Assembly: GCF_006345805.1 (NCBI RefSeq)
Contig: NC_042999.1
Span: 156,550,001-156,614,000, forward strand
Direction: 5' to 3'
Origin: Octopus sinensis
Taxonomy: Eukaryota
DNA length: 64,000 nt
Of the stretch, positions 2,874 through 63,141 are shown piece after piece (within the stretch, counting starts at the first letter, position 1; every line of letters begins with the position of its first letter). Made by a program: the position numbers and the translations under genes. The notes beneath the pieces were generated by a model, which worked only from the letters and a program-made list of their open reading frames with translations, had not been told where the DNA came from and did no database searches.

Positions 2874-3001
2874 AAATAGTGTACATTTAAACACAAGAGA
2901 AAACTACCTTTAACAGGTAATTTTTACAAACTACAAGAAGCAGTCACAACGACCAAAACCACATTTAGGAAAAATAAAAACTTTTACCTTGTTATTTTTT
3001 A

Positions 3002-3074
3002 ACGGTTATACCTAGGTTTCAGATTTCTTTAGCAAATGAATTAATTTGCTAGGCGAATCCTCATCAGTAACCGT
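3002..3074 (-). ncRNA. Type I hammerhead ribozyme (family 2, copy 1), canonical core
   Basis: ACGGTTA CTGATGA GGATT CGCC TAGCAAAT TAATTC ATTTGCTA AAGA AATCT GAAAC CTAG GTA TAACCGT: 7-bp stem I, extended stem II, palindromic stem III. Confidence 0.85.
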
Positions 3075-3293
3075 GCCATAACAACTAACATATAATTTAT
3101 AGACAAATAACACGTCTCACATCATTATATGTTATAATTTTACGAATATTATTTTATCATTTCGAAGATCGGTTCGGCACTTTCCATTTACTAGCGACTG
3201 AAACTGCGCGTGCGTGGCGAATTTTGAAAAATTATAACATATAATGATGAGATGGTGTTATTTGTCTCTAAATTATATGTTATTTGTTATTGC

Positions 3294-3366
3294 ACAGTTA
3301 CTGATGAGGGTTTGCCGAGCAAATTATTTTATTTACTCAAGAAATCTGAAACTTAGGTATAACCGT
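3294..3366 (+). ncRNA. Type I hammerhead ribozyme (family 2, copy 2)
   Basis: ACAGTTA CTGATGA GGGTT TGCC GAGCAAAT TATTTT ATTTACTC AAGA AATCT GAAAC TTAG GTA TAACCGT; T-A to G-C compensatory change in stem II relative to copy 1. Confidence 0.8.
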
Positions 3367-3849
3367 AAAAAATAACAAGGTAAAAGTTTTTATTTTTCAT
3401 TCCCTACGAAAGTTGCTCTTAAATGTGGTTTTGGTCGTGTAAAAATTACCTGTTAAAGGTAGTTTTCTCCCGTGTTTAAATGTACACTATTTTATATTGA
3501 GGATATTTTGTCTATTGACTTTATATATATGCAAGGCCACTGGTGGTGAAATTTCTATAAATATTCGCCACCCTATATATATTTTATGAATATGATTTTA
3601 GCATTTCTTTACTGCCCTGTTTTGGCAGGGCATTAAGTAGCTGAGGTCCTCTGAAACCGAGGCTGTTGCAGTACCTTGTTCTTATGTGAAATGCAGTGGA
3701 CGGTACTCTTGGTACTATGCAGTGGCGACCTGTGCGGGCATTTGTGTAGTACTTGATGCTAAAGTTTGGTACCAGTCCTTACAGTATTTTCCATATGTAA
3801 ATTATTACATATCGCTCCCACCTGCGCTCCAGGGAGTAGAGACTTAGAT

Positions 3850-4270: not shown

Positions 4271-7026
4271 CTGTTTACTTCAAGGCTTATATAAGTTGGA
4301 CGAGTGCTCTGCAATGCAGTATCACCCTGAACCTTTTCCATCTTACTGTAATTCTCAACACTATTTTTATCACTGCTAACCAGTTCTTCTCTCTAAGAGA
4401 AGCTATAAACTGCTTTTATAGTCCTTTAAACACTACAAGTAATTCATTTGATTTTGTATATATATCAAAAGCACAGACTGTATTCCCCATGAACCTGTCC
4501 TTATATGAAGTATCATATACGGTACACTTATGAAACTTCTACCCACTTCTGGAAACATGGACATACTGAGTGCAACAATTTCCTTGGTTGTATCAAACCC
4601 GTCTTTTGTAATTACTAAAGCTTAAGACTTCACTAAGTTTAGTCAGAGACCGATCGATTCTAGATTTTGTACGCATGTCTGGAACTTTTTCTTCAAGTCT
4701 TCCACAGTTTCTGCTATAAAAGGTGGGACATCAGATCATCAGTATATAGAATCTCACATGGGCAACCGGGTTACACACATACACATTTGCGCACATACAG
4801 AAATATACACACACTCACTCACAAACATAAAATCACGCATGAAATCATATAAACAAAAATATATCCTGGAAATGAACAGTAATTATATGAACTGATTTTC
4901 TGTACAACCTAAGGTTGGAGAAAATACAGACAACAAATGTTATACAGCTAAAAAAAAATTGATTAAAAATAAAGATTAGCCACATTCCGCAGACACGAAA
5001 TAAGGAAATAACCCACCAAAAAAGAAATTAGCTCTGCATGAGAGCATCTGTTGAGATATGAAAGAAATCAAAAATGATTTTCTTATGTATCTAGTCCTAT
5101 TAGCATTACAAATGGTACGGTATGTCTTATTCAACCCAAGAACCAGCTGACAAGACATGCGCTCTTCAGTGAAACTAAGGTATTTAAATAACTAAAGCTA
5201 TGTTAAAGTCACATCAACTATTTTAAAATCATTGATAATGTAGAGTCAAAAAGAATACTATTATAGCCTAGCAATTTTGAACAGTATTTGTTGGTAAATA
5301 AAGTGTTTAACTAAAGTAGTATAAAACATAAGTAGCATCTGTTGAGGCTTATGAAGCAATAAAACCAGATACACAAAGCACTTTAAAGCACAACAAAGTT
5401 TAAAATGAGGTGTATATGTTTTTCTCCTAATTTGATAAAAAAAAAAGACGTATTCAAGTTATTCTCAAGCTCTTTGGCTGATTCGACTTTCATTAACATT
5501 CTAGCATATCATATAAAATATAAAATATTGTTAAAATCATGTTTGCATGTAATCTATACCACCCAGTATAATAGGCCGTCTACTTTCCTTTTTGTGCCAA
5601 TTAAAATGGACGAAATAATATTAGTCAATATCAGTTCTCTCGTGCTAGATAATGTGTCGTGATTCGAAAGTGAATAATATTTGTTTGATAGAGGGCACAC
5701 AATATAACGACATATTTGCAATTAGCATACGCCATTAGATGAATCGGAAGTACATTATCTGGTAATATATCAGTCGGCACTTAAGATAGTTCCGCCTTTT
5801 GACGAAATGGTTTCCAACCAATATTTTATTGCATTAGGGAACAAAATCCGAATATTTTTAGTGTTGAAATGAAGCTTTGCTTCGCAAACAGCTTATCTAA
5901 TGAACGTTCTTGATTTCCTTCTGCTACTAGTTATATAAACAGAAGAATAATGATTATGAAGCAAGCAAATCTGAAGAAAAAATATCTTGTAAATATTAAT
6001 GCAAAATTTTCAGTAAATACAATGAGTTAACCTAAGAACTGCCTGTGACGCTCGCAAAATATGTTTACTATTAGAAATACATATAAACATATAAGTATAA
6101 GACCAATTAATATCAAACTAAGGCAAACACAGAGAAGGCTACATTTTGCTGAGCAGATTTAACTAGACGGCAACATGCCCGAAGTTGATAATCATACTTG
6201 CCGAAATCAGATTAAAACGTTATTAGCCCTTGAGCTAGCACTTCAGTCTCCTACAAATTCTTCAATACAATAATTTCAGAGGCACTAACTTGACGGGGTT
6301 TTTTTTTCCGTGGGTGGCATCTGAGGGTAATTTACCATAGTCTAGTCTATGACTGTCATTCTGATAATGTCATATAGCACAGTCATGTACTTGTTGATGT
6401 TATTTGGTCGTCTTTATTTGAGTGGACTTATGCAACAGAAATAACTAATCAAACACTTGTTAGTAATTTACAATACCGGTATCATGGATATTTCATTCTT
6501 CGTATTGTCCTACGATTATATTGTATATTCCGTCATACAGAGAATGATTGTTGGGCTGCTTTGTAGTATGGCAGCACGGTAGTAAAAACGGGTAACTCCA
6601 TTCTCCCATAGATAGGCGGTTTGGGTCAAGAATAAGTGTCCAATAATTATGAATAACAAAACGTATAAGAAACATTTGTCAACTCAAACGTGTTAAGACT
6701 TGCTGAAGCAATCGTCTACAATGGACTGTACATTTATTTGTCATTACTTGCATATATGATGGGTTATACTATAAGAAAGAAGTAAGGTCTTTCTTATAAT
6801 ATTTATTAAATAAATTTCTAAAAGTGAATAATTTTTTAAATATGATTATTTCCTCAATAAATTCCTTCAAATTTGCTTCAGTTCATTTACAGGTGCACAA
6901 GTTCTTAAAACCTTTAAATAAATAAAAAATAATATGTAATTTGAACAATTGCAGCGTGAAAGGTGTTTGTAAGCCATTTAAGAAACACACAAAAGCCGTT
7001 CGATTCACTTCAACATTTAAGTTTAA

Positions 7027-7077
7027 TTTGTCAAAATATTTTCGTCGCTTTAAGACCGCGACCTGTTCACTGACAAA
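7027..7077 (-). ncRNA. Variant minimal type I hammerhead (family 3) with G3-C8 swapped core
   Basis: TTTGTCA GTGAACA G GTCGC GGTCTTAAA GCGAC GAA AATATT T TGACAAA: 7-bp stem I, 5-bp stem II, palindromic stem III. Confidence 0.6.
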
Positions 7078-7363
7078 AATCCGTGCTGTAATTTGGTTTT
7101 CAATACCCTATAAAATGCACAAAACTTATGGTTAAATTAATTAGCAACGGAACTCTAAGAACTATTTTCAAGCCCAGATTAGGTAATATTTAGACTTTAG
7201 ATATAATTACTTTAAAAAAGCATTAAATTAGAATTTAGATCATGAATTCCATCAACATATAATTCTTGCTTCATTTTGCAGACAATTTTGATGTCTCTTA
7301 TAGTAACCGTGTCAATATAATGAATTATATTACTTTTTACAACTGCACACACATACATTCGTG

Positions 7364-7367
<4 letters not shown>

Positions 7368-7448
<81 letters not shown>
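7368..7448. repeat. (TG)n microsatellite
   Basis: Direct inspection. Confidence 0.97.
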
Positions 7449-7451
<3 letters not shown>

Positions 7452-8129
7452 CACGTGTTTTCTAAATATTTCAAATAAAAATTACTCTTAAAAAATCTAG
7501 ATATAAAATATAATAATTTTAATTTTCAGATAACTAGATTTGATAAAATATTATTTTCTGAATGCATTCAATCTAAAGTCCCTAAACACATGTTAAATCT
7601 AATTAATAAATCTTTACAGAAGGATATTTTCTTTTCTGAAAATTTAATATAGCTTAATCGGGAGAGAAATAACGAAGCTCATCGTTAAAAATTAAATGCT
7701 ATAAATTTCTCTTGGGAGAAGTTGCAAATATGGCAGTAATTTTGATGAAAATAATTAATAATTATGGTAATAATAAAATATTCACCGAACAAATAAATTC
7801 AAATAACACACACTCAGGCATATTTATTGTCCCTTTCTGTATAACATTTATATAAGGCAGAAAGCAACATTACAAAATATATGCATGTTAAAGCATCTAA
7901 TTTAGATAAAAGTCATCAATTTATCCTTATGAAAAATCGATTAACTATTTGGGACGATTTGTTGTTTATAAGATTATAATTAATTAAACAATGCTTCAAT
8001 CTTTATTTACAATAGTCATGTACATTTATACTACATTTTGGTTTCAGATCATTAACATGTCTTATTTCTGCTTATGTACATTTTTTAAAACCAAATTTGA
8101 ACTAGGAACCATTATTTTTTTTACAAAGC

Positions 8130-8537
8130 ATAGCTGTGTGGTAAGTAGCTTGCTAACCAACCACATGGTTCCGGGTTCAGTCCCACTGCGTGGCATCTTG
8201 GGCAAGTGTCTTCTGGTATAGCCTCGGGCCAACCAATGCCTTGTGAGTGGATTTGGTAGACGGAAACTGAAAGAAGCCTGTCGTATATATGTATATATAT
8301 ATATATATGTATGTGTGTGTTTGTGTGTCTGTGTTTGTCCCACTAGCATTGCTTGACAACCGATGCTGGTGTGTTTACGTCCCCGTCACTTAGCGGTTCG
8401 GCAAAAGAGACCGATAGAATAGGTACTGGGCTTACAAAGAATAAGTCCCGGGGTCGATTTGCTCGACTAAAGGCGGTGCTCCAGCATGGCCGCAGTCAAA
8501 TGACTGAAACATGTAAAAGAGTAAAAGAGTAAAGAGT
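8130..8537 (+). mobile_element. tRNA-derived SINE, family A
   Basis: Head with A/B-box-like TGTGTGGTAAG...GGTTCAGTCCC, internal TA/TG tract, (AAAAGAGT)n tail; near-identical to 23848-24257 and 63779-64000. Confidence 0.85.
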
Positions 8538-11035: not shown

Positions 11036-11077
<42 letters not shown>

Positions 11078-11450: not shown

Positions 11451-13709
11451 CCCTTATTCTATCAGAGAAAATGTATGTCACTAACTACCAACAGGGTCCA
11501 ATGGACCCAGTATTTTTCTATTAATTAAATTTTATTCATGCTACCACTGTTTCTTAGCTACATTATATATGCTATCAGGCAAATGAAGAATTACTGTTTC
11601 TTACAAATTTTAATAAAAAAAATACAGCTTACAGAATATATTATAAATTAAAAAAATTGCAAAAATACAGAATTACAGCTCTTCGTGGCAGTGAACGCAG
11701 ACATCATTGCAATGTTCTTGGCAAACTTAGATATTGCAATTCTTACATGTAGTACAGGTTTTCCTGTCTTTTGGGGGGCTACACAAAGAACATCTTCCTT
11801 TTTTCTTTGGCTGAGGAATCTCAAATGAGGTTGAAGAATGTCTTTTCTTGTTTGGTTGAGAAATGTTAGTGGAACTAGAAGATTGTTTGTCATAATCTTT
11901 TTGAGCATTAACTCCAGCAAGTTCCTTTCCTAACTGAATTAGGCACTGTCTTCTTTTATCCTTGAAACTTTGCAAGTGAAGTTGTTTAGCAACAATGAAA
12001 GCATTCACTGCACTTATATCAATCATGTAAAATATAACCATAGGTCATCTTCGAGTCATTGTTTTTCAAGTGTATGTCCTTACCATGTTGTCTAGGGTAT
12101 CTACTCCTACTTTTGTTTTGTTGTATCATGTAATAACTTCAGGTTTCTTTTCAGCACTTTTTGAATCAATTGAAGGCTGAGAGTGCATTGTACACGTAAG
12201 TGTAACTACATAATTTTTCTTGGGACAATAAGATAGGATCATAGAATCCTTTTGAAATCCAAATATTGTGCTGTTGATTTCCCTTTCTTTTCCATTTGTG
12301 AAAGCACTCGTAAGTTCTACTCTGTTCTTTCTAATTGTTCCAATTAAAGTAGTTTTCTTGCTAAGCAGCTCTCGAGCCAATCCTAGACTTGAAAAAAATT
12401 ACTGGGTCTTTTCCGGTGTAGATTTGCATTTTCCAGGCATGAGATGTTTCACTGTCGCATATCATCCAAATTTTAATTCCATATTTCTCTGGTTTTGAAG
12501 GAATTTATACCCAGAATGGGCAGCGCCCTCTGAATGAAACTAATTGTTCATCAACTGTTATGCATGAACTTGGAACATATTCATCTTCTGATTCCACATT
12601 TCAAATACTTCTCTTATGGGCTCCAATTTATCATCACTTCTCTTTTTTCTTCTTGCATTAGCACCATCAAAACACAATACTTGTAAAATCTGTTGAAATC
12701 TTCCTCGGTTCATAATTTTGTTGACTATGGGGAGTGGGGTATCTTCTTGACTCCATAACTGTGACATTTTTATGCTTAGATTTATAAACACCTATAAGAA
12801 TAATCAGTCCAACAAATTTCTTTAGTTCAGAGTGATCAATTTCCTTCCATTTATATTTGTAAACAACCTGACCTGCAACATTTGTTCATTTACGAATTAC
12901 TTCAAGAAGATTCTGGCGCATAAACATAGTAAATCATTTTTCAATGCTACTGCATGATCTTTTGGGTGGCTTACAGATAATTGTTTTTGAGTATTTTCAT
13001 TATCTGATGACACAGAACCTAAACTGTCCAGCACACAATCACTTTCACCATCATCTTCAGAGCAATAGAAGGAATCACTACTATCTTCTTCCCATTCTTC
13101 ATCTAATTCCAGTAACCTTTTCGATATTTGGTCACTCAAGTTTTCACGTCAAGACATATTGGAAAGCACAACTGAACTATATAAAACTTGATAGCAGACT
13201 AAAGGCAGATATTGCTCTCTCACATTTATACTCTCCTAAAAGACGATGCAATATATTGTAAGAATTGCATCATCGCATAGAAATATTGCATCACCCTATA
13301 ACCTAGCAGATTGAAGGTGATGCAATACCACACAAATTTACAGGAATATTTTCATAATTTTTCCTGTTTTATCTAAAATTCATCAAATAAATGGAATACA
13401 ATTTTATCTATTTTATATCTGATAAATATCTAGAATATTATTTAATACTGCTTTTATTATGTTTAGAATGGCAAGAGCATTGTCTGAGTTTAATTCGGGG
13501 GTCCAATGGATCCATATGGTAATTAATATATAAAGTGAAATTTTCTGTCTTTTATAAACATACGGAAAATTTCCCATTTGACAAATAAAAGAGAGTCAAG
13601 TAAAAATAAGAGTCACAAGAAATCAACAGAATCAAATAATATAAACAGTAGGAAAAAGCACTTGAAAAAAGCTGAAATGGGTCCATTAGACCCATTGGTA
13701 GACGGAAGG
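11451..13709 (-). mobile_element. Decayed piggyBac DNA transposon
   Basis: TTAA at 11447-11450 and 13710-13713; imperfect TIRs; inverted subterminal motif CTACCAA..GGGTC(C/T)AATGGACCC at both ends; internal transposase remnant. Confidence 0.9.
11648..13139 (-). pseudogene. piggyBac (PGBD4-like) transposase pseudogene with stops and frameshifts
   Basis: Acidic N-terminus; MNRGRFQQILQVLCFD, DDKLEPIREVF, TLIGTIRKNR, KKPEVI, VIFYMIDISAVNAFI; C-terminal Cys-rich KKGRCSLC...TCKNC. Confidence 0.9.
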
Positions 13710-25399: not shown

Positions 25400-26157
25400 T
25401 TAAACTATCCAACTTTTCTTCCTTCCTGCATAGAAACTGGTGTGTCCTAATAAAATTGTTTGGTTGATCATTCCATATGGTAAGCAGATCAAATCCAACC
25501 TCCAATAACTGTTTCGTGAAGCTATAGAAAAGAATTTTCCAAAACATTCAAGATACCATTCCATTATCAATTCACACCGAATTAGGATAGGTTTTTCAAA
25601 CACCAAAATCCTTTCACAAATCCTCTCTTCGCATAACAATAAGTTGTTAAATACAAATCCACTTAATGAAAATAATAACATTGATATTATTAACGCTAAC
25701 CATTCTTTGAACAATAATAACAAAAATACTAATATTTCTGATATAAATTCGAATCCTATTCGTTTCTTTAACAGTAATTCTAAGACTAGAAACTCTGTTT
25801 ATCAATGTAAAATTACTTCCGGTTCTGATGTCTTTTTTTTTTACATAGGTAGCTCATCGTCTCAGTTGTCGAAAAGAATATCTAACCATTACTCTACATT
25901 TAGACATGTTAATAAACGCAACAATACTGGGCTTAGTAAATTAATTTGGTCTCTAAAGGAACATGATAAACAATTTGATTTGGAATGGAAAATTCTATCT
26001 TGATCCTTCCCATATAACAAGAGTAAATCTTTTTGTCCTCTCTGTAACGAAGAACAATTTCTCATCCTTACCTCAGAGAATACTCTTGTAAATACGTTTA
26101 AAGAACGCATATATCGTTGTAAATATTGTCAAAAACATACCTTTAGTTCCTATAAGT
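25400..26157 (+). pseudogene. Penelope-like retroelement 3' remnant: RT thumb/linker and GIY-YIG endonuclease
   Basis: One frame with two internal stops: KIVWLIIPY...NFPKHSRYHSIINSHRIRIGFS...SVYQCKI...FYIGSS...KRISNH...TGLSKLIWSLKE...EWKIL*...CPLCNEE...RCKY. Confidence 0.88.
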
Positions 26158-30852: not shown

Positions 30853-31519
30853 TTATAAGTATATAACATAATATATCGCTATATTCTCTAACTTTCAGTC
30901 TTTGAAGCAGTTACAGACAAAGACTAGGGAAATGAAAACTATTCCACGATAAAAACTGTGTTGGGCAGCGTGTTATGCAGTTTTGTTGGTGTAATAGATC
31001 AAGCTTTTATGAATCAAGATGCGGTTTAGTTTTTCCAGTTTGCATTGACATTGATTCCTTGCATTTTTAAATATCATTTTCCACAAGATAATACGGTTTG
31101 CATTTGGTGCTGTTCAATATTTTTCTCGCGTCTATTGGTTAAATAACAGAAAACGAGATAAAAATTCCAAATTATCAAATTATTTTCGTCTCTGTAAGAG
31201 GAAATGATTTTTATCAACGGCTAAGATTCTCATCAAGCGACTGGGTATACTTTCAGAAGTGATTGATCTCTTTCAGTGCTCTGTAAAATGGCTCTCCATC
31301 AAATGCAAATTTGCCTATACTACCTAGATAAGCCTCGTCCTTGTTGCAGTCTCCTATTTTCGTTCATTGCTTTCAGTGCTTTCATTGCTTCAATGACAAG
31401 TTCAGAGTGCTAAATATGACTGACAGGTAATTCGGAAAACCGTCATCGTCCCTAATGTTGCGTATGCAACCCACTGATCTTATCAAATCACTATATTGTT
31501 GATTTATATTGATTTATAA

Positions 31520-33746: not shown

Positions 33747-34522
33747 ACCTGACATATTTACATTCTTAAATTGAGGCAGAAATATATATCTACTATATTG
33801 ATACTTACCTTGGTATTGACTTAGTATCTTTGAACCATTCTACTACTAGTAGCTATGTTTTTTCAATTAACGTCTTACATAAGAAACATTTCAACTTGAA
33901 CCGATATATAGTTGCGAATTAACCTCGAAGAATATGAATAAATTATAAAATTACCGTTTGCAATCACAAATTGCTTAACATTAATACTGTTTATAATTGT
34001 CTAATAAACAATGTTACTGTTAAAGAATTTGTGATCGAAAAAGGAAAAGCCAACTAACAATGTGTGGTAAAGATGCAGGCCACGAACTCAATATGTCTAC
34101 GCAGGAGAGGTTCGATTCCCGCTAGTAGAATGGTACCTGACATATTTACATTCTTAAATTGAGGCAGAAATATATATCTACTATATTGATACTTACCTTG
34201 GTATTGACTTAGTATCTTTGAACCATTCTACTACTAGTAGCTATGTTTTTTCAATTAACGTCTTACATAAGAAACATTTCAACTTGAACCGATATATAGT
34301 TGCGAATTAACCTCGAAGAATATGAATAAATTATAAAATTACCGTTTGCAATCACAAATTGCTTAACATTAATACTGTTTATAATTGTCTAATAAACAAT
34401 GTTACTGTTAAAGAATTTGTGATCGAAAAAGGAAAAGCCAACTAACAATGTGTGGTAAAGATGCAGGCCACGAACTCAATATGTCTACGCAGGAGAGGTT
34501 CGATTCCCGCTAGTAGAATGGT
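33747..34522. repeat. Tandem duplication of a 388-bp unit
   Basis: 33747-34134 and 34135-34522 appear identical. Confidence 0.95.
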
Positions 34523-41890: not shown

Positions 41891-42600
41891 GCATTTCAAA
41901 GGCTAACATTATATTGATTTTAATATTGTTTGTTGCTTTCCTAAATTACATTTTCTTAATTAAAAGTGTGTGTGTAAGATTTTTGTTGATCGTAAATAGT
42001 CAAGATTGTAACTGGGGTGCTATAAGAGAATTTAACAAACTTAAAGTTTGATTTTATTGGAAGCAGCTGCTCTTGAACGGAAAAAGGTGCTAGTGTACTT
42101 AAATTTACATTACTACAACTATTTTTATAAAAGGAAGGATCATATCCTTAACGCTGTTAAAGAAAAAAAATATGTGATCAGAGGCTCTACAAATAAGTTG
42201 TAGTTATTTTCTTAGAATAAAGCAAGTATCCTTTCTCATAGTCAAACTCCTGATAATTAAAGTACTTTAGTAACCAAAGAGGCATAAGCAGGACACACAA
42301 CCACAACAAACACTACCTCTTAGAAGTGAATCAATACTCGAAGAAAAGATGCAACAAATCTCAAACAGAATTCATACAAATTGGAAAGTAACATTTATTA
42401 TGGCTAAATGGAGAGCGGATTCCATAAATATCAAACATCAAGAAAACAGATTCTGTGGACTCATAGAAAATATGTCTGTAAATTGATTTCACTGTATATT
42501 TGGCAGAGCTGTAACCTTCTAGAAAAATTAAACGTAAACAATCCAAAGCAGAAAAGTATTTCGTTCTCTTCTCAGTTTGTTATCCTCTTCACACGCAGGA

Positions 42601-43009
42601 TAATTATGTGTGACAATTTCATATGACACCGCTAGAAAAAACTGCCGTTCAAACCGAAAAGATCCATTCTTTTTTATTGGTTCTACAATAGTCGAACTTC
42701 GTTACACATATGATAATTGTTCATTGGTAGCCTAAGGAAACAATCACAGACCATTAAGAAAATTGTGCACACAGACAAATTTATACTTTAAATATGTGGT
42801 TCCGCTGGTGACTAATGGGCCCAGCGCTTGATAAACATTCCTGTTAATAGACATTGCAGACCAAGCTTCCCCTATTCCCTACAATGGCGGTATATTTTCG
42901 AGCAGCTTGCTTAAATTCTGCATGCAAACTGTATGATTTTTTGAAGACACCCACTCTTTCCTTTACTTGTTTCTTCCACCTTAAATTATTACACTACCTG
43001 CAGTGATTT

Positions 43010-43073
<64 letters not shown>

Positions 43074-44030
43074 AAATCACTGCAGGTAGTGTAATAATTT
43101 AAGGTGGGTTTTATTTAAGTTTTGTCTTTTTCTGTGTTGGCTTCGTTAGAGGTTGACCTTTTCCAGAGCTCTCGTAACTTTTGCAGGGAAGGAAGAAGTA
43201 GACTTCAAAGCCGAGATCTGGCATAAATGCTTTGCAATGGAGTTAACTACGTTAAATAATCTGTAGGGCATCGGTTTAAGTGTAACACCACGAAACAAGT
43301 TTCATCGTATTTATGGACTTCAACTTAGTCTACATCTCCCAAATTTTACTCGGAAAGCTTTAGTGATCCTGGATACATTGTAGAACACACTTTACGAAGC
43401 TGCTGCACCTTGTGGAATTGAATTTGAAACCATATATTTGCGAAGCAAACTTCTTACCTACACGGCCTGCATGCGTTCATTGTGGAGAGCGTGTCATCTT
43501 ACTTTTTCATATACGAAAGGTCATCCTCTAACGAAGCCAACACAGAAAAAGACAAAACTTAAATAAAACCCACCTTAAATTATTACACTACCTGCAGTGA
43601 TGTCAAATATATATATATTTGAAATCACTGCAGGTAGTGTAATAATTTAAGGTGGAAGAAACAAGTAAAGGAAAGAGTGGGTGTCTTCAAAAAATCATAC
43701 AGTTTGCATGCAGAATTTAAGCAAGCTGCTCGAAAATATACCGCCATTGTAGGGAATAGGGGAAGCTTGGTCTGCAATGTCTATTAACAGGAATGTTTAT
43801 CAAGCGCTGGACCCATTAGTCACCAGCGGAACCACATATTTAAAGTATAAATTTGTCTGTGTGCACAATTTTCTTAATGGTCTGTGATTGTTTCCTTCGG
43901 CTACCAATGAACAATTATCATATGTGTAACGAAGTTCGACTATTGTAGAACCAATAAAAAAGAATGGATCTTTTCGGTTTGAACGGCAGTTTTTTCTAGC
44001 GGTGTCATATGAAATTGTCACCCATAATTA
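42601..44030. repeat. Large inverted duplication (arms 42601-43161 and 43516-44030)
   Basis: Arms nearly identical apart from (TA)n length; each holds ~65 bp of a TIR-element end and a nested palindrome. Confidence 0.92.
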
Positions 44031-44382
44031 TGACCCTAGTATCGATCTATTGCATTTCAATCTGTTTTAGGGTTAGGGTTAGGGATGGGTGGAAGGGTAT
44101 CTTTTTTCTTCACAAATGTAAATAAACCCAATCTGTTTCTTAAACGAGGGACATATTCATACGGCACAGAATGTTTTTTTTACCGCAATACACGTCACTG
44201 ATTGGTTGAAATTGCAGAAATTGAGGAAAAAAACAACAAATATCTTACAAACTATAGAATTTTCTGAATAAAGCCAAGAGAAAAAGATGTTTTATAAACA
44301 CATTCTACCAGTATACGAAGTTTAAAAGTGTTTAGTTACGTGGAAATTATGTTAAAAACTGTCGTTCAAACCGAAAAGATCC
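43966..44382 (+). mobile_element. TTAGGG-containing TIR element, full copy
   Basis: 29-bp TIR GGATCTTTTCGGTTTGAACGGCAGTTTTT; (TTAGGG)3 near 44067; no flanking direct repeat seen. Confidence 0.9.
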
Positions 44383-45824
44383 AAAAGCAGCAAGAAGAAA
44401 TTGTATGCATGTGAGCTTGCAGTTGTAGTGTGTTGTCGCCTGAATCTATCCTAATTAGTTAAATAGTCTTCTTTGGGATGTAATATAAAATATAAGTGTG
44501 TGCAGCACCACCGTGCTTTCGTGTTTGGTTTACCTGAGCTTAGCTGAGGTTCAGAAAATGATCATGGCCGAAGTAATTCCTTTGTGATAGAGCCATCATC
44601 AAAGACTGGATTGCAAGGATGCCTTGCGCTTGTAGCGTGTGTTAATTGTATTTTATTCATAACTAGGGAATGTGAAAAATCATTTGTGCATTCGTAATCT
44701 CGGATATCTAAAACGTAGGAATCCGAAAATCTATTTTCAAAAAACAGCATTTTTCAACGAAGGTGCGGAACTACATTAGTCCTGAAAAATACAGTTGTAT
44801 ATCCTTGTGATTGCAAAAGAAATGTTCCCTAATCACTATTTATTTCACGATACTTTATATTTTAGGAGTACTCTTTGAAAACAAAAGAGAAATAATGATA
44901 TCTCATTATATTACACTATGGCCGACTGTTGTGCTAATTTATAACTTGGACAAATAGCGACATTGTATTTATAAAACTATTCCCATGCGTAAAAACAAAA
45001 TTAGAAACAAAATATCTTATCAGCTCTAATCTTACATTGTCTGTAGATAAATGTTTTAGTTTCAAAAGTTATTTCAAATGAAAACAAAACGAAACAGTAT
45101 CAAATATCAAATTCGATGGAAATAATTATCCAAACCGTCTTACTTGGACAGGATCTTGTAAATAATCAATAATATTATTTAGCAGAGATAATAAGCCAGC
45201 ACATTGGTCGCATATTTATTTTCTGCCCGATATTTTCAACTAATTTTGGTTGCAAAAGTAGTTCGTAATCTGTATTGTTTTCTGAGGATTAATATTTAAT
45301 TTTGTTAAGTTCTATCAAATATCAATATATTGTTTAGAACAGCGGTTCTCAAACTGATAAATACCAACCCACAATCCAAAATATTAATGAAATTGTTTGC
45401 ACTTTGTTTATAAGGAAATAAAATTTGGTTTACAAGCGTATAATTCCTCTTTCTTCACCATGATGTTGAATATATTTCAAAAGTTTTAAACCATCTTAAT
45501 GTGTTTAAACAAGGAAAATGTTCCGCCCCTTGCTAAAATCCACATCCCCGGAGATATTGCCACCCCTTGAGAAACTAATTTTAAAAGATTTTAATCAAGC
45601 AGGAAAATATTTGGCTGATAAACCTAAGACAATTCTTCAGTTTGGAATTAAAATTTGTTGTTAATCTTCACAATTATCCGAAAAGTAGATTGCTTTAAAA
45701 CTTATACAAAGTTAACTTTGCATTAACGTCATGGTCTTATGAATCAATATAACTTTAAAACGAGGCAGTATTATTTTCCTTATGCTTGGCTTTATGCTCA
45801 AGTTAGAAATAATGGTAATGTATT

Positions 45825-46570: not shown

Positions 46571-46941
46571 GGATCTTTTCGGTTTGAACGGCAGTTTTTT
46601 CTAGCGGTATGATATGAAATTGTCACCCATAATTATGACCCTAGTATCGATCTATTGCATTTCAATCTGTTTTAGGGTTAGGGTTAGTTAGGGTTAGGGT
46701 TAGGGTAAGGGGTGGGGGAAGGGTATCTTCTTTTCTTCACAAATGTAAATAAACCCAATCTGTTTCTTAAACATATGGCACAGAATGTTTTTTTTTACCT
46801 CAATAGACGTTAGTGATTGGTTGAAATTGCAGAAATTGAAGAAAAAACAACAACAAATATCTTACAAACTATAGGATTTTCTCAATAAAGCCAAGAGAAA
46901 AAGATGTTTTATAAACACATTCTACCAGTATACGAAGTTTA
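46571..46941 (+). mobile_element. TTAGGG-containing TIR element, truncated before second TIR
   Basis: Left TIR and TTAGGG array present. Confidence 0.88.
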
Positions 46942-49509: not shown

Positions 49510-49965
49510 CAGCCCCCTAGTCTACTGTTGAGATTCGTATTTAGTATCGTTATTCCCTTCCTCTTTACCCCCACCTCCTAGCATATATATTCTCATCTTT
49601 ACTGCATAAATGTTTTCAAATACACATAAGCTCTCTCTCCCTCCATCCCACTCTCCCTCTCTCCTTCGCACACGCGCGCTGCTCTTGCTCGCTCTCTTTC
49701 CCTCCCGCTTTTCTCTCTCAAACTTAGCGTCAGTATTCTCTTTTTCTACGACATATTTACGGACTTTACTGAATAATTTGTATCAGCAAAGAAGACCACC
49801 ACTTGTGACTTTTATTATGAGTATTCCTTTTTGTTCTCATCTTTTTCTCAAACAAAAAAATGTCATTTGGGGTAAGTTTCAAAAAAGCAACAACAATCCG
49901 GAAAGTAATGAAAGCAGTTGAATTAATAAAAATCTATTTTAAAATGTCTATATCGTTAAGTCGTT

Positions 49966-50380
49966 GGATCTTTTCGGTTTGAACGGCAGTTTTTAACATA
50001 ACTTCTAGGTAACTAAAAAATTTTAAACTTCGTATACTGGTAGAATGTGTTTATAAAACATCTTTTTCTCTTGGCTTTATTCAGAAAATTCTATAGTTTG
50101 TAAGATATTTGTTGTTTTTTTTCTCTTCAATTTCTGTAATTTCAACCAATCAAATACGTCTATTGAGGTAAAAAAAAACTTTCTGTGCCGTATGAATATG
50201 TCTTTCGTTTAAGAAACAGATTGGGTTTATTTACATTTGTGAAGAAAAAAAGATACCTTTCTCTCCAACCTAACCCTAAAACAGATTGAAATGCAATAGA
50301 TCGATACTAGGATCATAAATATGGGTGACAATTTTATATGACACCGCTAGAAAAAACTGCCGCTCAAACCGAAAAGATCC
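49966..50380 (-). mobile_element. TTAGGG-containing TIR element with 37-bp flanking direct repeat
   Basis: 49929-49965 equals 50381-50417. Confidence 0.92.
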
Positions 50381-51200
50381 AAAATCTATTTTAAAATGTC
50401 TATATCGTTAAGTCGTTTGTTAATATTGTTCACATGGTTATCCAAGCAAATTAAATTTTGTCTAGTTTTACAAAGTCGTTTTACATACTTATTTTATTAG
50501 ATTTTTGCGTTAATAAATTATTATTATTTTAAATATTTTACTTTACTTTATTACACACCCACTATGCGTAGTAGAAAAGACTGTCCAAATATTTTGCACC
50601 GACAGTTGTAGTGAATATAAAGTCGCTTGGAGATATGCTTTTTTCCAATTTAGTGTCGGCTTAAGTTGGTATGTACAAATAGACGTTAATCTCGTAGTGA
50701 TGATGAAGACAGTGACGATAATGGTGACGATGAAAACAGCGGCGACGATACTAAATCAGAGAAATAACAATCATAATTAAGATGAAAACAGACGTTAATC
50801 CAAGTATAAGACGGCAATAATGTGTACAGGTATTAACAACCACCATTTTGTGTTTCAAACTTTTCAATTTATACATCATTAAAATACGGTTTCTCCCATT
50901 CAATTTACCTCACGTTCTTAATATAATTAACATCATAAAGTAATATAAGTATGTAGGTCAATTTTTTTTTATCCTTAGAAAGGTTTCCTATTTGCTTTCT
51001 TTTGATTAAGCAACTTTATTGTCGAAGTAAAATGAAATACTGTAACATTTATGTAGTTACCGAAAAGTACCAGTGACGTTTGTAAGTCGAAATTACTGGT
51101 TCTGAAATCGGAATCAACTCAGAGGGTTTACTACTTCACTATACGATACTTATCCCCTGTAATTTTAAGAGTGATTTCTTCTGACTGAATACAAGACTAA

Positions 51201-51632
51201 GGATCTTTTCGGTTTGAACGGCAGTTTTTTCTGACGGTGTCATATGAAATTGTCACCCATATTTATGACCCTAGAATCGATCTATTGCATTTCAATCTCT
51301 TTTAGGGTTAGGGTTACTTAGGGTTAGGGTTAGGGGTGGAGGAAGAGTATCTTTTTTTCTTCACAAATGTAAATAAACCCAATCTGTTTCTTAAACGAGG
51401 GACATATTCATACGGCACAGAATGTTTTTTTACCTCAATAGACGTCATTGATTTGTTGAAATGGCAGAAATTGAAGAAAAAAACAACAAATATCTTACAA
51501 ACCATAGAATTTTCTCAATAAAGCCAAGAGAAAAAGATGTTTTATAAACACATTCTAACAGTATACGAAGTTTAAAATTTTTTAGTTACCTAGAAATTAT
51601 GTTAAAAACTGCCCTTCAAACCGAAAAGATCC
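51201..51632 (+). mobile_element. TTAGGG-containing TIR element with 112-bp flanking direct repeat
   Basis: 51089-51200 vs 51633-51744, about 6 substitutions. Confidence 0.92.
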
Positions 51633-52018
51633 GAAATTACTGGTTCTGAAATCGGAATCAATCCAGCGGGTTTAATACTTCACTGTACGATACTTATCCC
51701 CTGTAGTTTTAAGAGTGATTTCTTCTGACTGAATACAAGACTAATATTTTCAGTTGATGCGCATATATCAATGCTAATTTTATCAACTGTCTAGTGATTG
51801 CACCGTAAGACACCAGCTTTAGAATCTTAACGTTTGAGTATTTTTACCAAGGTTTTAAGCTAGCAACGGTGAAGTGAATTGGTTTCAAAAATATACTGAA
51901 ACCTCACTGGCATCTCAGTCTGCTGAAAGGTTACTTCTCGCAAGCCTTTTACGATCGCATTGCCTTTAAGTTTATACCAATTACAAATTAGGCTGCAAGC
52001 ACAGTAGGAAAAATTTTA

Positions 52019-52431
52019 GGATCTTTTCGGTTTGAACGGCAGTTTTTAACATAATTTCTAGGTAACTAAAAAATTATAAACTTCGTATACTAGTAGAATG
52101 AGTTTATAAAACATCTTTTTCTCTTGGCTTTATTCAGAAAATTCTATAGTTTGTAAGATATTTGTTGTTTTTTTCTTCAATTTCTGCAATTTCAACCAAT
52201 CAGTGAAGTCTATTCCTACATCATATTCTGTGCCGTATGAATATGTCCCTCGTTTAAGAAACAGATTGGGTTTATTTACATTTGTGAAGAAAATAAGATA
52301 CCCTTCCCCCACCCCTAACCCTAACCCTAAAAGAGATTGAAATGCCAAAGATCGATACTAGGGTCATAATTATGGGTGACAATTTCATATGACACCGCTA
52401 GAAAAAACTGCCGTTCAAATCGAAAAGATCC
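52019..52431 (-). mobile_element. TTAGGG-containing TIR element with ~91-bp flanking direct repeat
   Basis: 51927-52018 vs 52432-52521. Confidence 0.92.
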
Positions 52432-53402
52432 AAGATTACTTCTCGCAACCTTTTACGATCGCATTGCCTTTAAGTTTATACCAATTACAAATTAGGCTGC
52501 AATCACAGTAGGAAAATTTTAAAACTTCTGATAAACCAATTTCGTAGGAAGTTCTCTTGTCTAAGTGAAAATATTTTACCTCTTTACTATTCCTATCTTC
52601 TAACCCCTACGTATATAGCGCCTTTGTGACACGTCAAAAGTAATCGCTATGAGAAATTGTCGTGTATAAAAAAAAAAAGAAAGAAAGAAAACTGAAGCGT
52701 ACAAATGCTGTTTCGGTCTGCAATATCCTGTTAAAAAAGTTACTATTCTAGCCGACTGCATACCGACTAAATTTTAACTAATTGATTCTAAGAAAGAACG
52801 AAAAGCATTTAAAGAAAATAGCTAATAAATATTTCCTTTTAATTCTGTTATCATCGTGGTAGCATTACATGATATTTATCGAAAGTGGGGAAATCAAATA
52901 CTGATTTTTCACTAGAACAACATTCACTTTTCCATTTATTCATTAGTTACAGAAGAACGGCATTTTATTTTTAGAGCTTCGTAAAAATTAATATTCTTAC
53001 AAAATTAATATCTAAAGAAAAAAAAATGAAGCAATATGAATTGATGAATGAAAAAATCAAACGACAATATTGTAGTATATTAAAATTTAACTGCTTATTA
53101 TGCAGGTAACCTTCAGGAAAATTACTAAATTTCTACTGCGCGTTTTTGGGAAGCCTTTCTGGAAAATTAATATTGATTTCTAACATTAGCACATAATCAA
53201 AAATATTTCAGAAAAGGAATGTAGTAGATAATAGTGCTTGCTAAGTACTGATTATATAGAACAGGGCGGATCAAACGAAAGGTAAATTTAACTCAAAAGG
53301 TAAATTTAACCAAGTTTCTGCCGATATTTCATGAGATAAATACTCGCTGTAAAGAATTCATATATTTTTTTAACTATACTTTATTCTTCTTCGAATATAT
53401 GT

Positions 53403-55644: not shown

Positions 55645-56070
55645 GGATCTTTTCGGTTTGAACGGCAGTTTTTAACATAATTTCTAGGTAACTAAAAAAT
55701 TTTAAACTTCGTATACTGGTAGAATGTGTTTATAAAACATCTTTTTCTCTTGCCTTTATTCAGAAAATTCTATAGTTTGTAAGATATTTGTTGTGTTTTT
55801 CTTCAATTTCTGCAATTTCAACCAATCAAATACGTCTATTGAGGTAAAACAACATTCTGTGCCGTATGAATATGTCCCTCGTTTAAGAAACAGATTGGGT
55901 TTATTTACATTTGTGAAGAAAAAAAGATAGCCTTCCCACCACCCTTAACCCTAACTAACCCTAACCCTAAAACAGATTGAAATGCAATAGATCGATACTA
56001 GGGTCATAATTATGGGTGACAATTTCAACGACACCGCTAGAAAAAACTGCCGTTCAAACCGAAAAGAACC
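55645..56070 (-). mobile_element. TTAGGG-containing TIR element, full copy, no flanking repeat seen
   Basis: Both TIRs; CCCTAA array near 55945-55970. Confidence 0.9.
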
Positions 56071-60264: not shown

Positions 60265-60680
60265 GGATCTTTTCGGTTTGAACGGCAGATTTTAACATAA
60301 TTTCTAGGTAACTAAAAAATTTTAAACTTCGTATACTGGTAGAATGTGTTTATAAAACATCTTTTTCTCTTGGCTTTATTCAGAAAATTCTATAGTTTGT
60401 AAGATATTTGTTGTTGTTTTTCTTCAATTTCTGCCATTTCAACCAATCAATGACGTGTATTGAGTTGAAAAACATTCTGTGCCGTATGAATATGTTCTTC
60501 GTTTAAGAAACAGATTAGGTTTATTTACATTTGTGAAGAAAAAAAGATACCCTCCCCCCACCCCTAACCCTAACCCTAAAACAGATTGAAATTCAATAGA
60601 TCGATACTAGGGTCATAATTATGGGTGACAATTTCATATGACACCGCTAGAAAAAACTGCCGTTCAAACCGAAAAGATCC
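60265..60680 (-). mobile_element. TTAGGG-containing TIR element abutting a truncated Gypsy 5' LTR
   Basis: Both TIRs; CCCTAA array near 60561-60579. Confidence 0.9.
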
Positions 60681-63141
60681 AAAATAACTGGTGACTTTAG
60701 CCCTGATGTACGTAAAGTAATAAACCTTTGATAAATGTATTCGTGGCTCCACTAGTTTGTTTGTGTATAGCTTAGCAAAGCTATGACTGTTGACCCCCGA
60801 CGATAGAACAACAGCTCTCACTATCGAAGCAAAAATGGCAAGCAACAAAACAACACTGAGGCTACCACAATTCTGGCCTAAGAGGGCTGAACTATGGTTC
60901 GCGCAGGCAGAAGCCCAAATCAATATAAACAAGGTAACAGCCACCCAAACGAAATATTTTTACGATGTAGCGGCACTAGATGAAGATATTGCATCGAGGG
61001 TGCTGGACATTGTAACCCAACTCCCACCAACGCACAAATATGCCATATTGAAAAACAGGCTAGTGGATACATTCTGACGCAGTGAACGAGAAGCAGCAGC
61101 CAAGATACTGGAGAAGGAATTAGGCGATTCTAAGCCCTCGGAACTGATGGACAATATGTTGGCATTAATTTCCCCTTCCCCAGGGAGTCAACTTCCTTTT
61201 TGTTTAGGGAAATCTTCCTCTGCAAGCTGCCACCCCAGGTCAAAGCTCGAAATCAAGGACTTACAGCAATTAGCGAAGGCAGCTGACAAACATTTTTTAT
61301 CCAGTGGTGTTATGCTCAACGCCATAGGGTCGGACCCGAAACGGGGTAGGGTTAAGCATGATGACCTGTGCTTCTCCCACGCAAAGATCGAGAAAAAGGA
61401 TACGAAGTGCAAACAACCATGTAGCTTCGGGACCCCTTCTCCATTTACCCAGGTGGCCGACAGATATGATCAAATGCTTCTCTATGTCCGCGGTTGGAGC
61501 TCTGAACGCAGGTTCCTAATCGACACAGGAGCAGAAGTCAGCGTGATCTCGCACTCTTTCTCTCAACATCGGCTCACAAAAATACACATAGGCATTCACC
61601 ATTGCAGATGTCCATCAGCCCATTATCAGTGCAGACTTTCTTCGAACACACTTGTTACTGGTTTATTTGCGGTGCAGACGACTCATCGACAACAACACAT
61701 ACGTTTCAGTGTCTCTGGCAACATTTGCGCATGTCGCCCCACCCTCGCATAGCAACTGTCTCGCAGATCAAGAACGAATTCTCGAATCTTCTTGCAAGTC
61801 GCCCCAATCTCACCACTCCGACATTCTTCAAACCTACAGCCTGCCACTGGATGACACACCACATTTCCACCACAGCTCTCCCCAGTGCACAGCCGCGCAC
61901 GCCGTGTATCACCAGACTAACTGGCATCTCAAAGGCCGAGTTCGACAATATGGAAGCATTGAGCATAGTTCGCCGATCAAGCAGTCTCTGGTCGTCACCC
62001 CTGCAGGTGGCCCCCAAATCCAACGGAGGTTATCGACCTTGCAGAGATTACCGCCGTCTCAACGCAGATACGACATCTGACCACTACCCCATTCTACCAT
62101 ATAGGATTTCTCAGCCCAGCTAGCCGGGTGCTCGTTTTCCCGAAAGTTGACCTCATCCGATGATACCCCAAATACCTAAAACCGCTGTGATCACTCCTTT
62201 AGGTCTGTACGAATTCATACGTACACCCTTTGGGCTGAAAAACGCAACGCAATCCTTCCAACGCTTGATGGACACCATGTACAGAGGTCTTTGCATACTT
62301 AGATGATATTTTGTCTTTGCATAACTTGATGATATCGTAATTGCAAGCTACAAAATGCGGAGCTACAAAATGCGGAGCTACAAAAAGTGACTCTTTTTGA
62401 TAGGCTGAAACAGTATAGTTTAGTAATCAACCCCGTCAACCCGGATGTCAAAAGGTACCTCGCTCAACTGAGAGACTGCGTGGCCAGTTGCACCCTGTTC
62501 CTGTGTCGACACACGGTACACCCAGATCATCTGTATCAAACGACCTCCGCACGGCTAACTTTGTGTTCGTTCGACGTGACACTCGACAAAAACCCCTCCA
62601 GTCACCGTACGATGGTCCATATCGAGTCATACAACCGGGAGATAAATCATTCCAACTCCTAATTGGCGGACGACACAGTCTCCATCGATAGGTTGAAACC
62701 GGTCCGTCTCGTTATTGACAACCCCGTTCAGGTAGTTCAACTACCAAACAGAGGCCGCCCTAGGCATATCACACCAACCCTTGTCAAGGAACAGTCACCA
62801 AAGAACCGAGTAACCACACGCATGGGCAGGGCAATTAAAACGGCTCCCCAGTTCCAATGACAATCAATAGTTCTGGGGGGTGGAGGAGCTATGTAGGGTA
62901 GGATTCATGACAGACGAACTGTAAACAGGAACATCGTTACGCGCTAGCTAGGGAGTTGGTCGGCAGCGAAGGGAACTTCCGTATGGAGAAGAGAAACAAA
63001 ACAATGTTAGCAGTGAGCGTTAAATAAATCTGAATTAAATAATTGGCGACTTAAGCCCTCTTGTACGTAGAGTAATAAACCTTTGATAAATATATTATCG
63101 TCTCCACTGGTTTGTTTGTGTATAGCTTAAAAAAGCTATAC
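60681..63141 (+). mobile_element. Decayed, internally deleted Ty3/Gypsy LTR retrotransposon
   Basis: 5' LTR remnant 60681-60784 matches ~63037-63139; PBS-like TGTTGACCCCCGACG; purine tract then TGTAG start of 3' LTR at 62892. Confidence 0.9.
60835..62860 (+). pseudogene. Gypsy gag-pol pseudogene
   Basis: gag LRLPQFW...LWFAQAEAQ; protease FLIDTGAEVSVI; RT SSSLWSSPL..RPCRDYRRLN, PFGLKNA, YLDDI; RNase H and integrase core missing; IN tail PLQSPYDGPYRV. Confidence 0.9.

Follow-up and report, generated by a model that had tools for sequence, protein, structure and literature searches.

A hammerhead-type motif with a G3-C8 core in a high-copy dispersed repeat of Octopus sinensis

A hammerhead-type motif is found on the minus strand at positions 7027-7077 of a 64,000-nucleotide stretch of Octopus sinensis DNA, which is referred to here as the window. 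The literal core C3-U-G-A-N-G8-A9 fails at this motif, which has G3 and C8 instead, and the motif forms part of a dispersed repeat (Table 1). G3-C8 is the state of the family and not the decay of a single copy, since no alternative letter reaches 3% at position 3 or 8 in any of the four public runs aligned; what is new here is the fixation of this pair throughout a high-copy family. The explanation towards which we lean is that the repeat is a non-autonomous short retroelement derived from a Penelope-like element (PLE), whose minimal type I hammerhead has a G3-C8 pair and is predicted to cleave slowly, only as a dimer or together with PLE protein.

Table 1. Coordinates of the repeat, its flanks, and the parts of the hammerhead-type motif in the window
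Feature	Positions	Strand	Remarks
Dispersed high-copy repeat, one copy in window	6944-7088	minus	boundaries from public-run depth
Left target-site duplication, TAATTTG	6937-6943	plus	9 bp (6935-6943) if the element end is 7086
Right target-site duplication, TAATTTG	7089-7095	plus	exactly at the depth-defined boundary
3' part of element	6944-7026	minus	hairpin fold, -13.5 kcal/mol (without shuffle control)
Stem I, 5' arm	7071-7077	minus	pairs with 7027-7033, 7/7 Watson-Crick
Stem I, 3' arm	7027-7033	minus	A1.3 at 7031 is G in 10-22% of depth
Core G3 U4 G5 A6 A7 C8 A9 and extra G between 9 and 10.1	7063-7070	minus	G3 = 7070, C8 = 7065, A9 = 7064, extra G = 7063
Stem II and 9-nt loop	7044-7062	minus	arms 7062-7058 / 7048-7044, 5/5 Watson-Crick
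G12 A13 A14, AAUAUU, U17	7034-7043	minus	G12 = 7043, AAUAUU = 7040-7035, U17 = 7034

Architecture and predicted folding of the motif

All positions of the motif were indexed letter by letter in the window sequence. Stems I and II enclose the core in type I order, the first stem II pair is G10.1-C11.1, and U4, G5, A6, A9, G12, A13, A14, A15.1/U16.1, and H17 are all present. Positions 3 and 8 are complementary in the Watson-Crick sense (G-C) by sequence, with the tertiary pair itself being predicted, and AAUAUU is a palindromic stem III that could pair only between molecules, placing the predicted cleavage site at 7034/7033. The loop II letter at 7052 in the window copy is unlike that of most copies. 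This arrangement bears out the original prediction, which had described a 7-bp stem I, a G3/C8 core, an extra G, a 5-bp stem II, AAUAUU, and U17, had recognized the layout of a minimal PLE hammerhead with palindromic stem III, and had pointed out that a double swap at positions 3 and 8 keeps their complementarity; its interpretation as a whole is partly supported.

A descriptor scan of the window with any bases allowed at positions 3 and 8 gave three matches. One is this motif, and the others are canonical C3-G8 hammerheads located near 3067 and near 3300. In the strict class, which demands Watson-Crick complementarity of 3 and 8, a palindromic stem III, a stem II of at least 5 and a stem I of at least 7, two real matches are found in the window and none in 2,289 windows obtained by block-wise dinucleotide shuffling, while the loosest descriptor class gives 0.86 matches per shuffled window. 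An independent-base estimate for an equally good match is 5e-8 per window, or ~0.01 over 250,000 windows, and is optimistic in that the class was drawn up after the match was known. From the shuffles and this estimate together, a chance origin of the motif is excluded. No hammerhead was reported by Rfam, either across the whole window at E<=5 or locally at E<=10, and the two canonical C3-G8 hammerheads of the window are likewise missed. The expectation that CUGANGA descriptors would overlook the motif thus holds, with a core of G3/C8 and no Rfam match either.

Wider pattern searches were also carried out. The family pattern had no match in the viral, prokaryote-genome, and metagenome collections, and a pattern accepting either C3/G8 or G3/C8 had none in the metagenomes and two in the prokaryote genomes, neither of them with a hammerhead fold. 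A generic G3-C8 pattern matched at least 122 loci in viral contigs, a result that is uninformative about phages; among the matches listed, one of the 122 combines a stem II of at least 4 with a stem I of at least 3, and its best fold is not a hammerhead. Within the window, a 31-base match at 31169-31199 (self-BLAST, E 0.003) has no recognizable stem I or core upstream and was discarded as a further copy.

Folding with RNAfold showed that stems I and II form, with an energy of -13.8 kcal/mol and a z of -2.35, an energy equalled by 5 of 200 shuffles. In the fold of lowest energy, G3 and U17 form a pair (p=0.67), a feature absent from the original prediction. Stem III is hardly formed within one molecule (p=0.0002), and the AAUAUU duplex amounts to only -0.2 kcal/mol, as against -11.4 kcal/mol for the canonical ACCUAGGU of the window. 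For the homodimer, the prediction is a strand-swapped duplex of stems I and II and not a stem III dimer. A loop II partner of at least 4 bases was sought within the element, and none exists except TTAA.

These predictions can be set beside published activities. PMC4209133 describes PLE minimal hammerheads as inactive alone and weak as dimers. For the anole PAc PLE hammerhead, PMC11167929 reports that cleavage requires the PLE protein, that the PLE inserts in vitro without the need for cleavage, and that an engineered C3G/G8C exchange partly restores cleavage. An inhibitory C3-G17 pair in hammerheads is discussed in PMC3884650, to which the G3-U17 pairing predicted here is analogous, and the same source states, as data not shown, that G3-C8 fares worse with C17 than with G17; U17 in the octopus motif would escape a full G3-C17 pair. 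Cleavage would, somewhat more probably than not, be slow and dependent on a dimer or on protein.

The repeat and variation among its copies

Twenty of 24 public runs, spanning 12 studies, contain the stretch or part of it. Depth and variant tables were drawn from four aligned runs (X2, X7, X11, and X15), all consisting of assembled contigs. X2 and X7, whose run kind is not on record, were treated as DNA since they cover the unique flanks of the repeat; X11 and X15 are putative RNA according to the tool's guess, and their coverage is limited to the repeat. Summed depth in X2 is 3.3-4.0 million over the repeat and 48.5 over the flanks, a ratio of ~70,000, and in X7 it is 0.29-0.65 million and 5.25, a ratio of 55,000-124,000; the ratio is a crude one, inflated by overlapping short contigs, and is not a copy number. 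Read from this depth, the copy number is of the order of ten thousand. A total of 15,791 contigs were aligned in X2. Beyond both repeat ends the letters vary from contig to contig, with an agreement of 0.44-0.5 for X2 and X7, and the copies are therefore dispersed; many of them run ~16 or more bases past 6944 and ~5 past 7088. A repeat of ~140 bp (~6950-7090) had been proposed earlier, and the public runs confirm it with the limits 6944-7088, whereas no second copy occurs within the window.

The boundary of the repeat was fixed from depth independently of the target-site duplication that flanks it, for which the chance probability is 0.6-1.3% when a slip of +/-2 is allowed. A target-site duplication of variable length in AT-rich DNA is a PLE trait, and it is present here at 7-9 bp in the one copy examined. 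No reverse transcriptase or endonuclease open reading frame of at least 60 aa was found in 5401-8130, with frames judged by eye, and there is no tandem copy at the repeat locus; the linked PLE reading frame or tandem array that was to be looked for according to the original prediction is thus not found there. The nearest GIY-YIG fragment lies 18 kb from the motif. Separately, a 37-base imperfect palindrome is located at 6766-6802, 140 bases outside the repeat.

The variant table holds letters of at least 3% and is complete, given that its rows sum to the totals of each run for X2 and X15; 33 of its 35 rows were used, the flank rows 6556 and 6736 being left out. G3 and C8 make up at least ~97% of aligned depth. 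Across 7061-7088 no variant of at least 3% appears in any of the four runs, a region in which variants near the element end are clipped and not listed, as illustrated by the CpG at 7082-7083 without any row. The variation below 3% at positions 3 and 8 shows fixation and not selection among copies, since most non-CpG positions also vary by less than 3%. Stem II variation is mainly symmetric CpG decay at 3.5-7% in X2, with mismatching changes included. Compensatory covariation among copies, which had also been proposed as a check, was therefore not demonstrated: positions 3 and 8 stay below 3%, stem II mostly decays at CpG, and depth is pooled so that copies are not individually visible.

Two details of the variation hint at structure. 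The commonest stem I change, at 7031, preserves the pair as U-G. In addition, G12 (7043) stays below 3% in all four runs though its CpG partner changes at 3.9-7% in X2 and X7, and CpG neighbours of G12 decay at 3.5-7% in X2; this concerns a single position and is a weak hint. The swap itself is a stronger argument for structure than these hints, because two random changes among the 11 core bases would give a compensatory 3-8 pair ~0.6% of the time and because the 3-8 pair, as described in PMC8495972, forms solely in the folded active site. As a further observation, positions 7044 and 7056 both change at ~24% in X15 but at 1-7% in X2 and X7. This suggests that X15 is rich in a single copy or subfamily whose stem II opens with a G-U pair.

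A comparison of the putative RNA runs with the runs treated as DNA revealed ten changes whose frequency is below 1% in each of X2 and X7 and rises at least threefold in each of X11 and X15. Eight are A-to-G on the hammerhead strand, one is A-to-G on the other strand, and one is C-to-G, which corresponds to a crude strand bias of p about 0.02 for A-to-G. The strongest site, 6979, reaches 14-25% in the putative RNA runs, and the sites that fall within the motif include A16.3 (7037) and A11.2 (7045). The changes look like A-to-I editing, maybe by ADAR, with allelic differences formally possible as the DNA-like and RNA-like runs come from different samples. They suggest that the element is transcribed, possibly solely within host transcripts.

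Penelope-type mobility and the explanations considered

Among the joints listed from public-run contigs, 15 of 18, nine switch strand, and all nine join 7067-7089, the 5' end of the element on the hammerhead strand, head-to-head with an internal point at 6984-7046, the shorter side measuring 31-50 letters. Joints were called at 80% likeness, at which other repeats can also produce them. Twin priming of LINE-mobilised RNAs also yields head-to-head joints. PLE insertions, in the account of PMC8557442, carry an inverted 5'-truncated copy at their 5' end. Under either the PLE or the twin-priming reading, the joints would indicate target-primed reverse transcription of the hammerhead strand. Together with the head-to-head inverted partial copies, the target-site duplication points to retrotransposition of the Penelope type, in which the hammerhead strand would be the template.

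The motif is built like a PLE hammerhead. It shares with the metazoan PLE minimal type I hammerheads described in PMC4209133 the extra base between 9 and 10.1, G10.1-C11.1, and a palindromic stem III that could act only in a dimer, as well as U-rich upstream and AU-rich downstream flanks and thousands of solo copies; the extra base, G10.1-C11.1, and the flanks were not demanded by the search descriptor used here. Of the features which that study gives beyond its own descriptor, the extra base, G10.1-C11.1, and a palindromic 15.2-16.2 all occur here. In contrast to those hammerheads, stem I is longer, at 7 bp, and a G takes the place of the H that is their consensus (>80%) for the extra base. 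Several rows for Hydra-clade PLE hammerheads in PMC8557442 likewise have an extra G after A9, together with a short palindromic stem III, and several of these hammerheads lie ~100-200 bases from the element 3' end (File S1/S2), a position similar to that in the window copy, in which ~125 bases follow G3. However, the core in that table is C3-G8 in 34 of 34 rows (File S2), unlike the G3-C8 found here, and three short strings of the element are unmatched in the supplement, where line wraps can mask a match.

A natural 3-8 covariant, U3-A8, exists (PMC4209133 and PMC3088659), and the hammerhead surveys compared here start from the C3-G8 core and add U3-A8 as the known natural covariant. G3-C8 is absent from the 44 alignment rows examined in the PMC4209133 supplement. 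The engineered C3G/G8C hammerheads of PMC11167929 and PMC8495972 have the same swapped pair with a partial rescue of cleavage, but they are laboratory mutants, whereas the pair here occurs naturally, as the fixed state of a family of genomic repeats. No natural G3-C8 was found in the portion of the literature searched, and an earlier description may exist. The largest survey of PLE hammerhead variants is reportedly that of Lunse et al., and 3-8 exchanges are said to have been studied by Przybilski and Hammann in 2007.

In the preferred explanation, the element would be equivalent to the pseudo-LTR with which a PLE ends on its 3' side, the hammerhead strand would be the RNA copied by target-primed reverse transcription, and the PLE reverse transcriptase/GIY-YIG endonuclease would be supplied in trans. 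Selection on the 3-8 pair in the parent element would be the reason why the double swap was retained. Having no stem III, a solitary copy would be silent within host transcripts; in a source transcript with two copies in tandem, or in RNA held by PLE protein, the AAUAUU palindromes could pair and permit a slow cut after U17. The window does include PLE material, in the form of the GIY-YIG fragment and the canonical hammerhead pair, and a direct link from the repeat to an autonomous PLE was not found. The PLE link is thus indirect, as neither a reverse transcriptase or endonuclease reading frame nor a tandem copy is present at the locus, and the element probably belongs to the PLE or retrozyme families. 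The copies retain an intact hammerhead and do not begin at the cleavage site. Such intact copies, the insertion of the anole PLE without cleavage, the weak stem III, and the G3-U17 pairing are counted against the preferred explanation.

In the main rival, an unlikely but credible one, the hammerhead is a relic that was functional in an ancestral PLE and is now a silent passenger, with amplification depending on recognition of the 3' part by the reverse transcriptase. A weak stem III, a G3 trapped by U17, copies that are dispersed monomers, CpG decay of 3.5-7% in stem II in X2 that includes mismatching changes, and an anole PLE that inserts without cleavage (PMC11167929) are all what such a relic would display. 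On the other hand, the rest of the core is intact across the family, pairing survives the most frequent change in stem I (7031, 10-22%), and G12 is kept below 3% in four of four runs despite its CpG context, although the last concerns one position and is a weak hint.

It is doubtful that an active natural G3-C8 hammerhead drives a retrozyme-like element of ~170 nt, of which solo copies are silenced while tandem or protein-bound source RNAs are cut, and that the class is widespread. Tens of thousands of solo copies in host transcripts would then be silenced by the swap at 3 and 8, the trapping of G3 by U17, and the weakness of the palindrome, and, if this were true, surveys based on CUGANGA would be blind to a widespread class of G3-C8 hammerheads.

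We regard it as improbable that the repeat is a non-LTR retrozyme, that is, a ~170-nt monomer excised by the hammerhead from tandem arrays, circularised, and reverse-transcribed, with the window holding a solo monomer. Both copy ends are sharp, the short extensions at the two ends are alike, as from a circular or tandem template (agreement ~0.5), and a few joints, of a kind not stated, jump back inside the unit (7024 to 6960; 7084/7085 to 7032). Animal non-LTR retrozymes (PMC7229834 and bioRxiv 10.64898/2026.07.22.740005) are similarly short, non-coding, hammerhead-bearing, and PLE-related, and solo monomers are common in retrozyme families according to the preprint. Nevertheless, none of the joints listed leads from the end at 7088 back to that at 6944, the consensus letters of the loose ends do not represent real copies, and the element differs from the retrozymes in its shorter unit (described animal monomers are 220-390 bp in PMC7229834), its non-canonical core, and the lack of a tandem array at the locus. 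A chance look-alike within an unrelated SINE or MITE is scarcely credible: the missing Rfam match, the departure from the canonical core, and a B-box-like string seen by eye on the opposite strand (~6998-7007) would suit it, but no shuffle among 2,289 reproduced the motif against an estimate of 5e-8 per window, Rfam misses both canonical motifs as well, 51-65% of depth has another letter at 7001, within the B-box-like string, so that the string is a minority form, ARAGORN, which would miss most SINE heads, finds no tRNA gene, and the template, judging from the joints, is the hammerhead strand.

With G3-C8 fixed in a family of the order of ten thousand copies, what had been a laboratory rescue mutant would become a natural, selected variant, and the number of hammerheads in animal genomes would have been underestimated. 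Moreover, the family would provide a clean test of whether PLE hammerheads need to cut, because a compensatory double transversion is hard to explain without selection on the active-site fold.

Other features of the window

The window is AT-rich and contains many microsatellites and dispersed repeats. An inverted repeat of 250 bp, 82% identical between its arms (2881-3130, minus; 3241-3485, plus), has one canonical C3-G8 type I hammerhead per arm, at 3002-3074 on the minus strand and at ~3296-3362 on the plus strand. Both have a long stem II, and stem III is a perfect 8-base palindrome in the minus copy and has one mismatch in the plus copy. The layout of this pair (2881-3485) resembles Hydra-clade PLE ends. 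A broken GIY-YIG endonuclease frame at 25509-26100 on the plus strand matches Pfam PF01541 with an E of 0.008, below the curated cut-off, and by eye resembles the endonuclease at the C terminus of Hydra-clade PLEs; no hammerhead was found behind it by descriptor.

Other mobile sequences are also visible. Frameshifted frames at 61078-62123 (plus) have protease- and reverse-transcriptase-like motifs by eye and are probably a decayed LTR retrotransposon, with no relevant Pfam match on the one frame tested. A 105-aa frame at 11727-12044 (minus), which has no Pfam match, ends in a cysteine-rich tail that by eye is like the end of a piggyBac-type transposase. A dispersed family of ~400 bp with a tRNA-like head by eye, which we take to be a SINE, is found at 8128-8536 with copies near 11038, 23854, 36209, 38104, and 63782. 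An exact 388-bp tandem duplication, 100% identical, at 33747-34522 is either a recent event or an assembly artefact. Finally, a family of ~430 bp occurs in numerous copies and in both orientations at 42600-44386, 46571-46941, 49963-52520, 55645-56070, and 60265-60685, and an inverted pair of its members flanks the (TA)n tract at 42975-43108.
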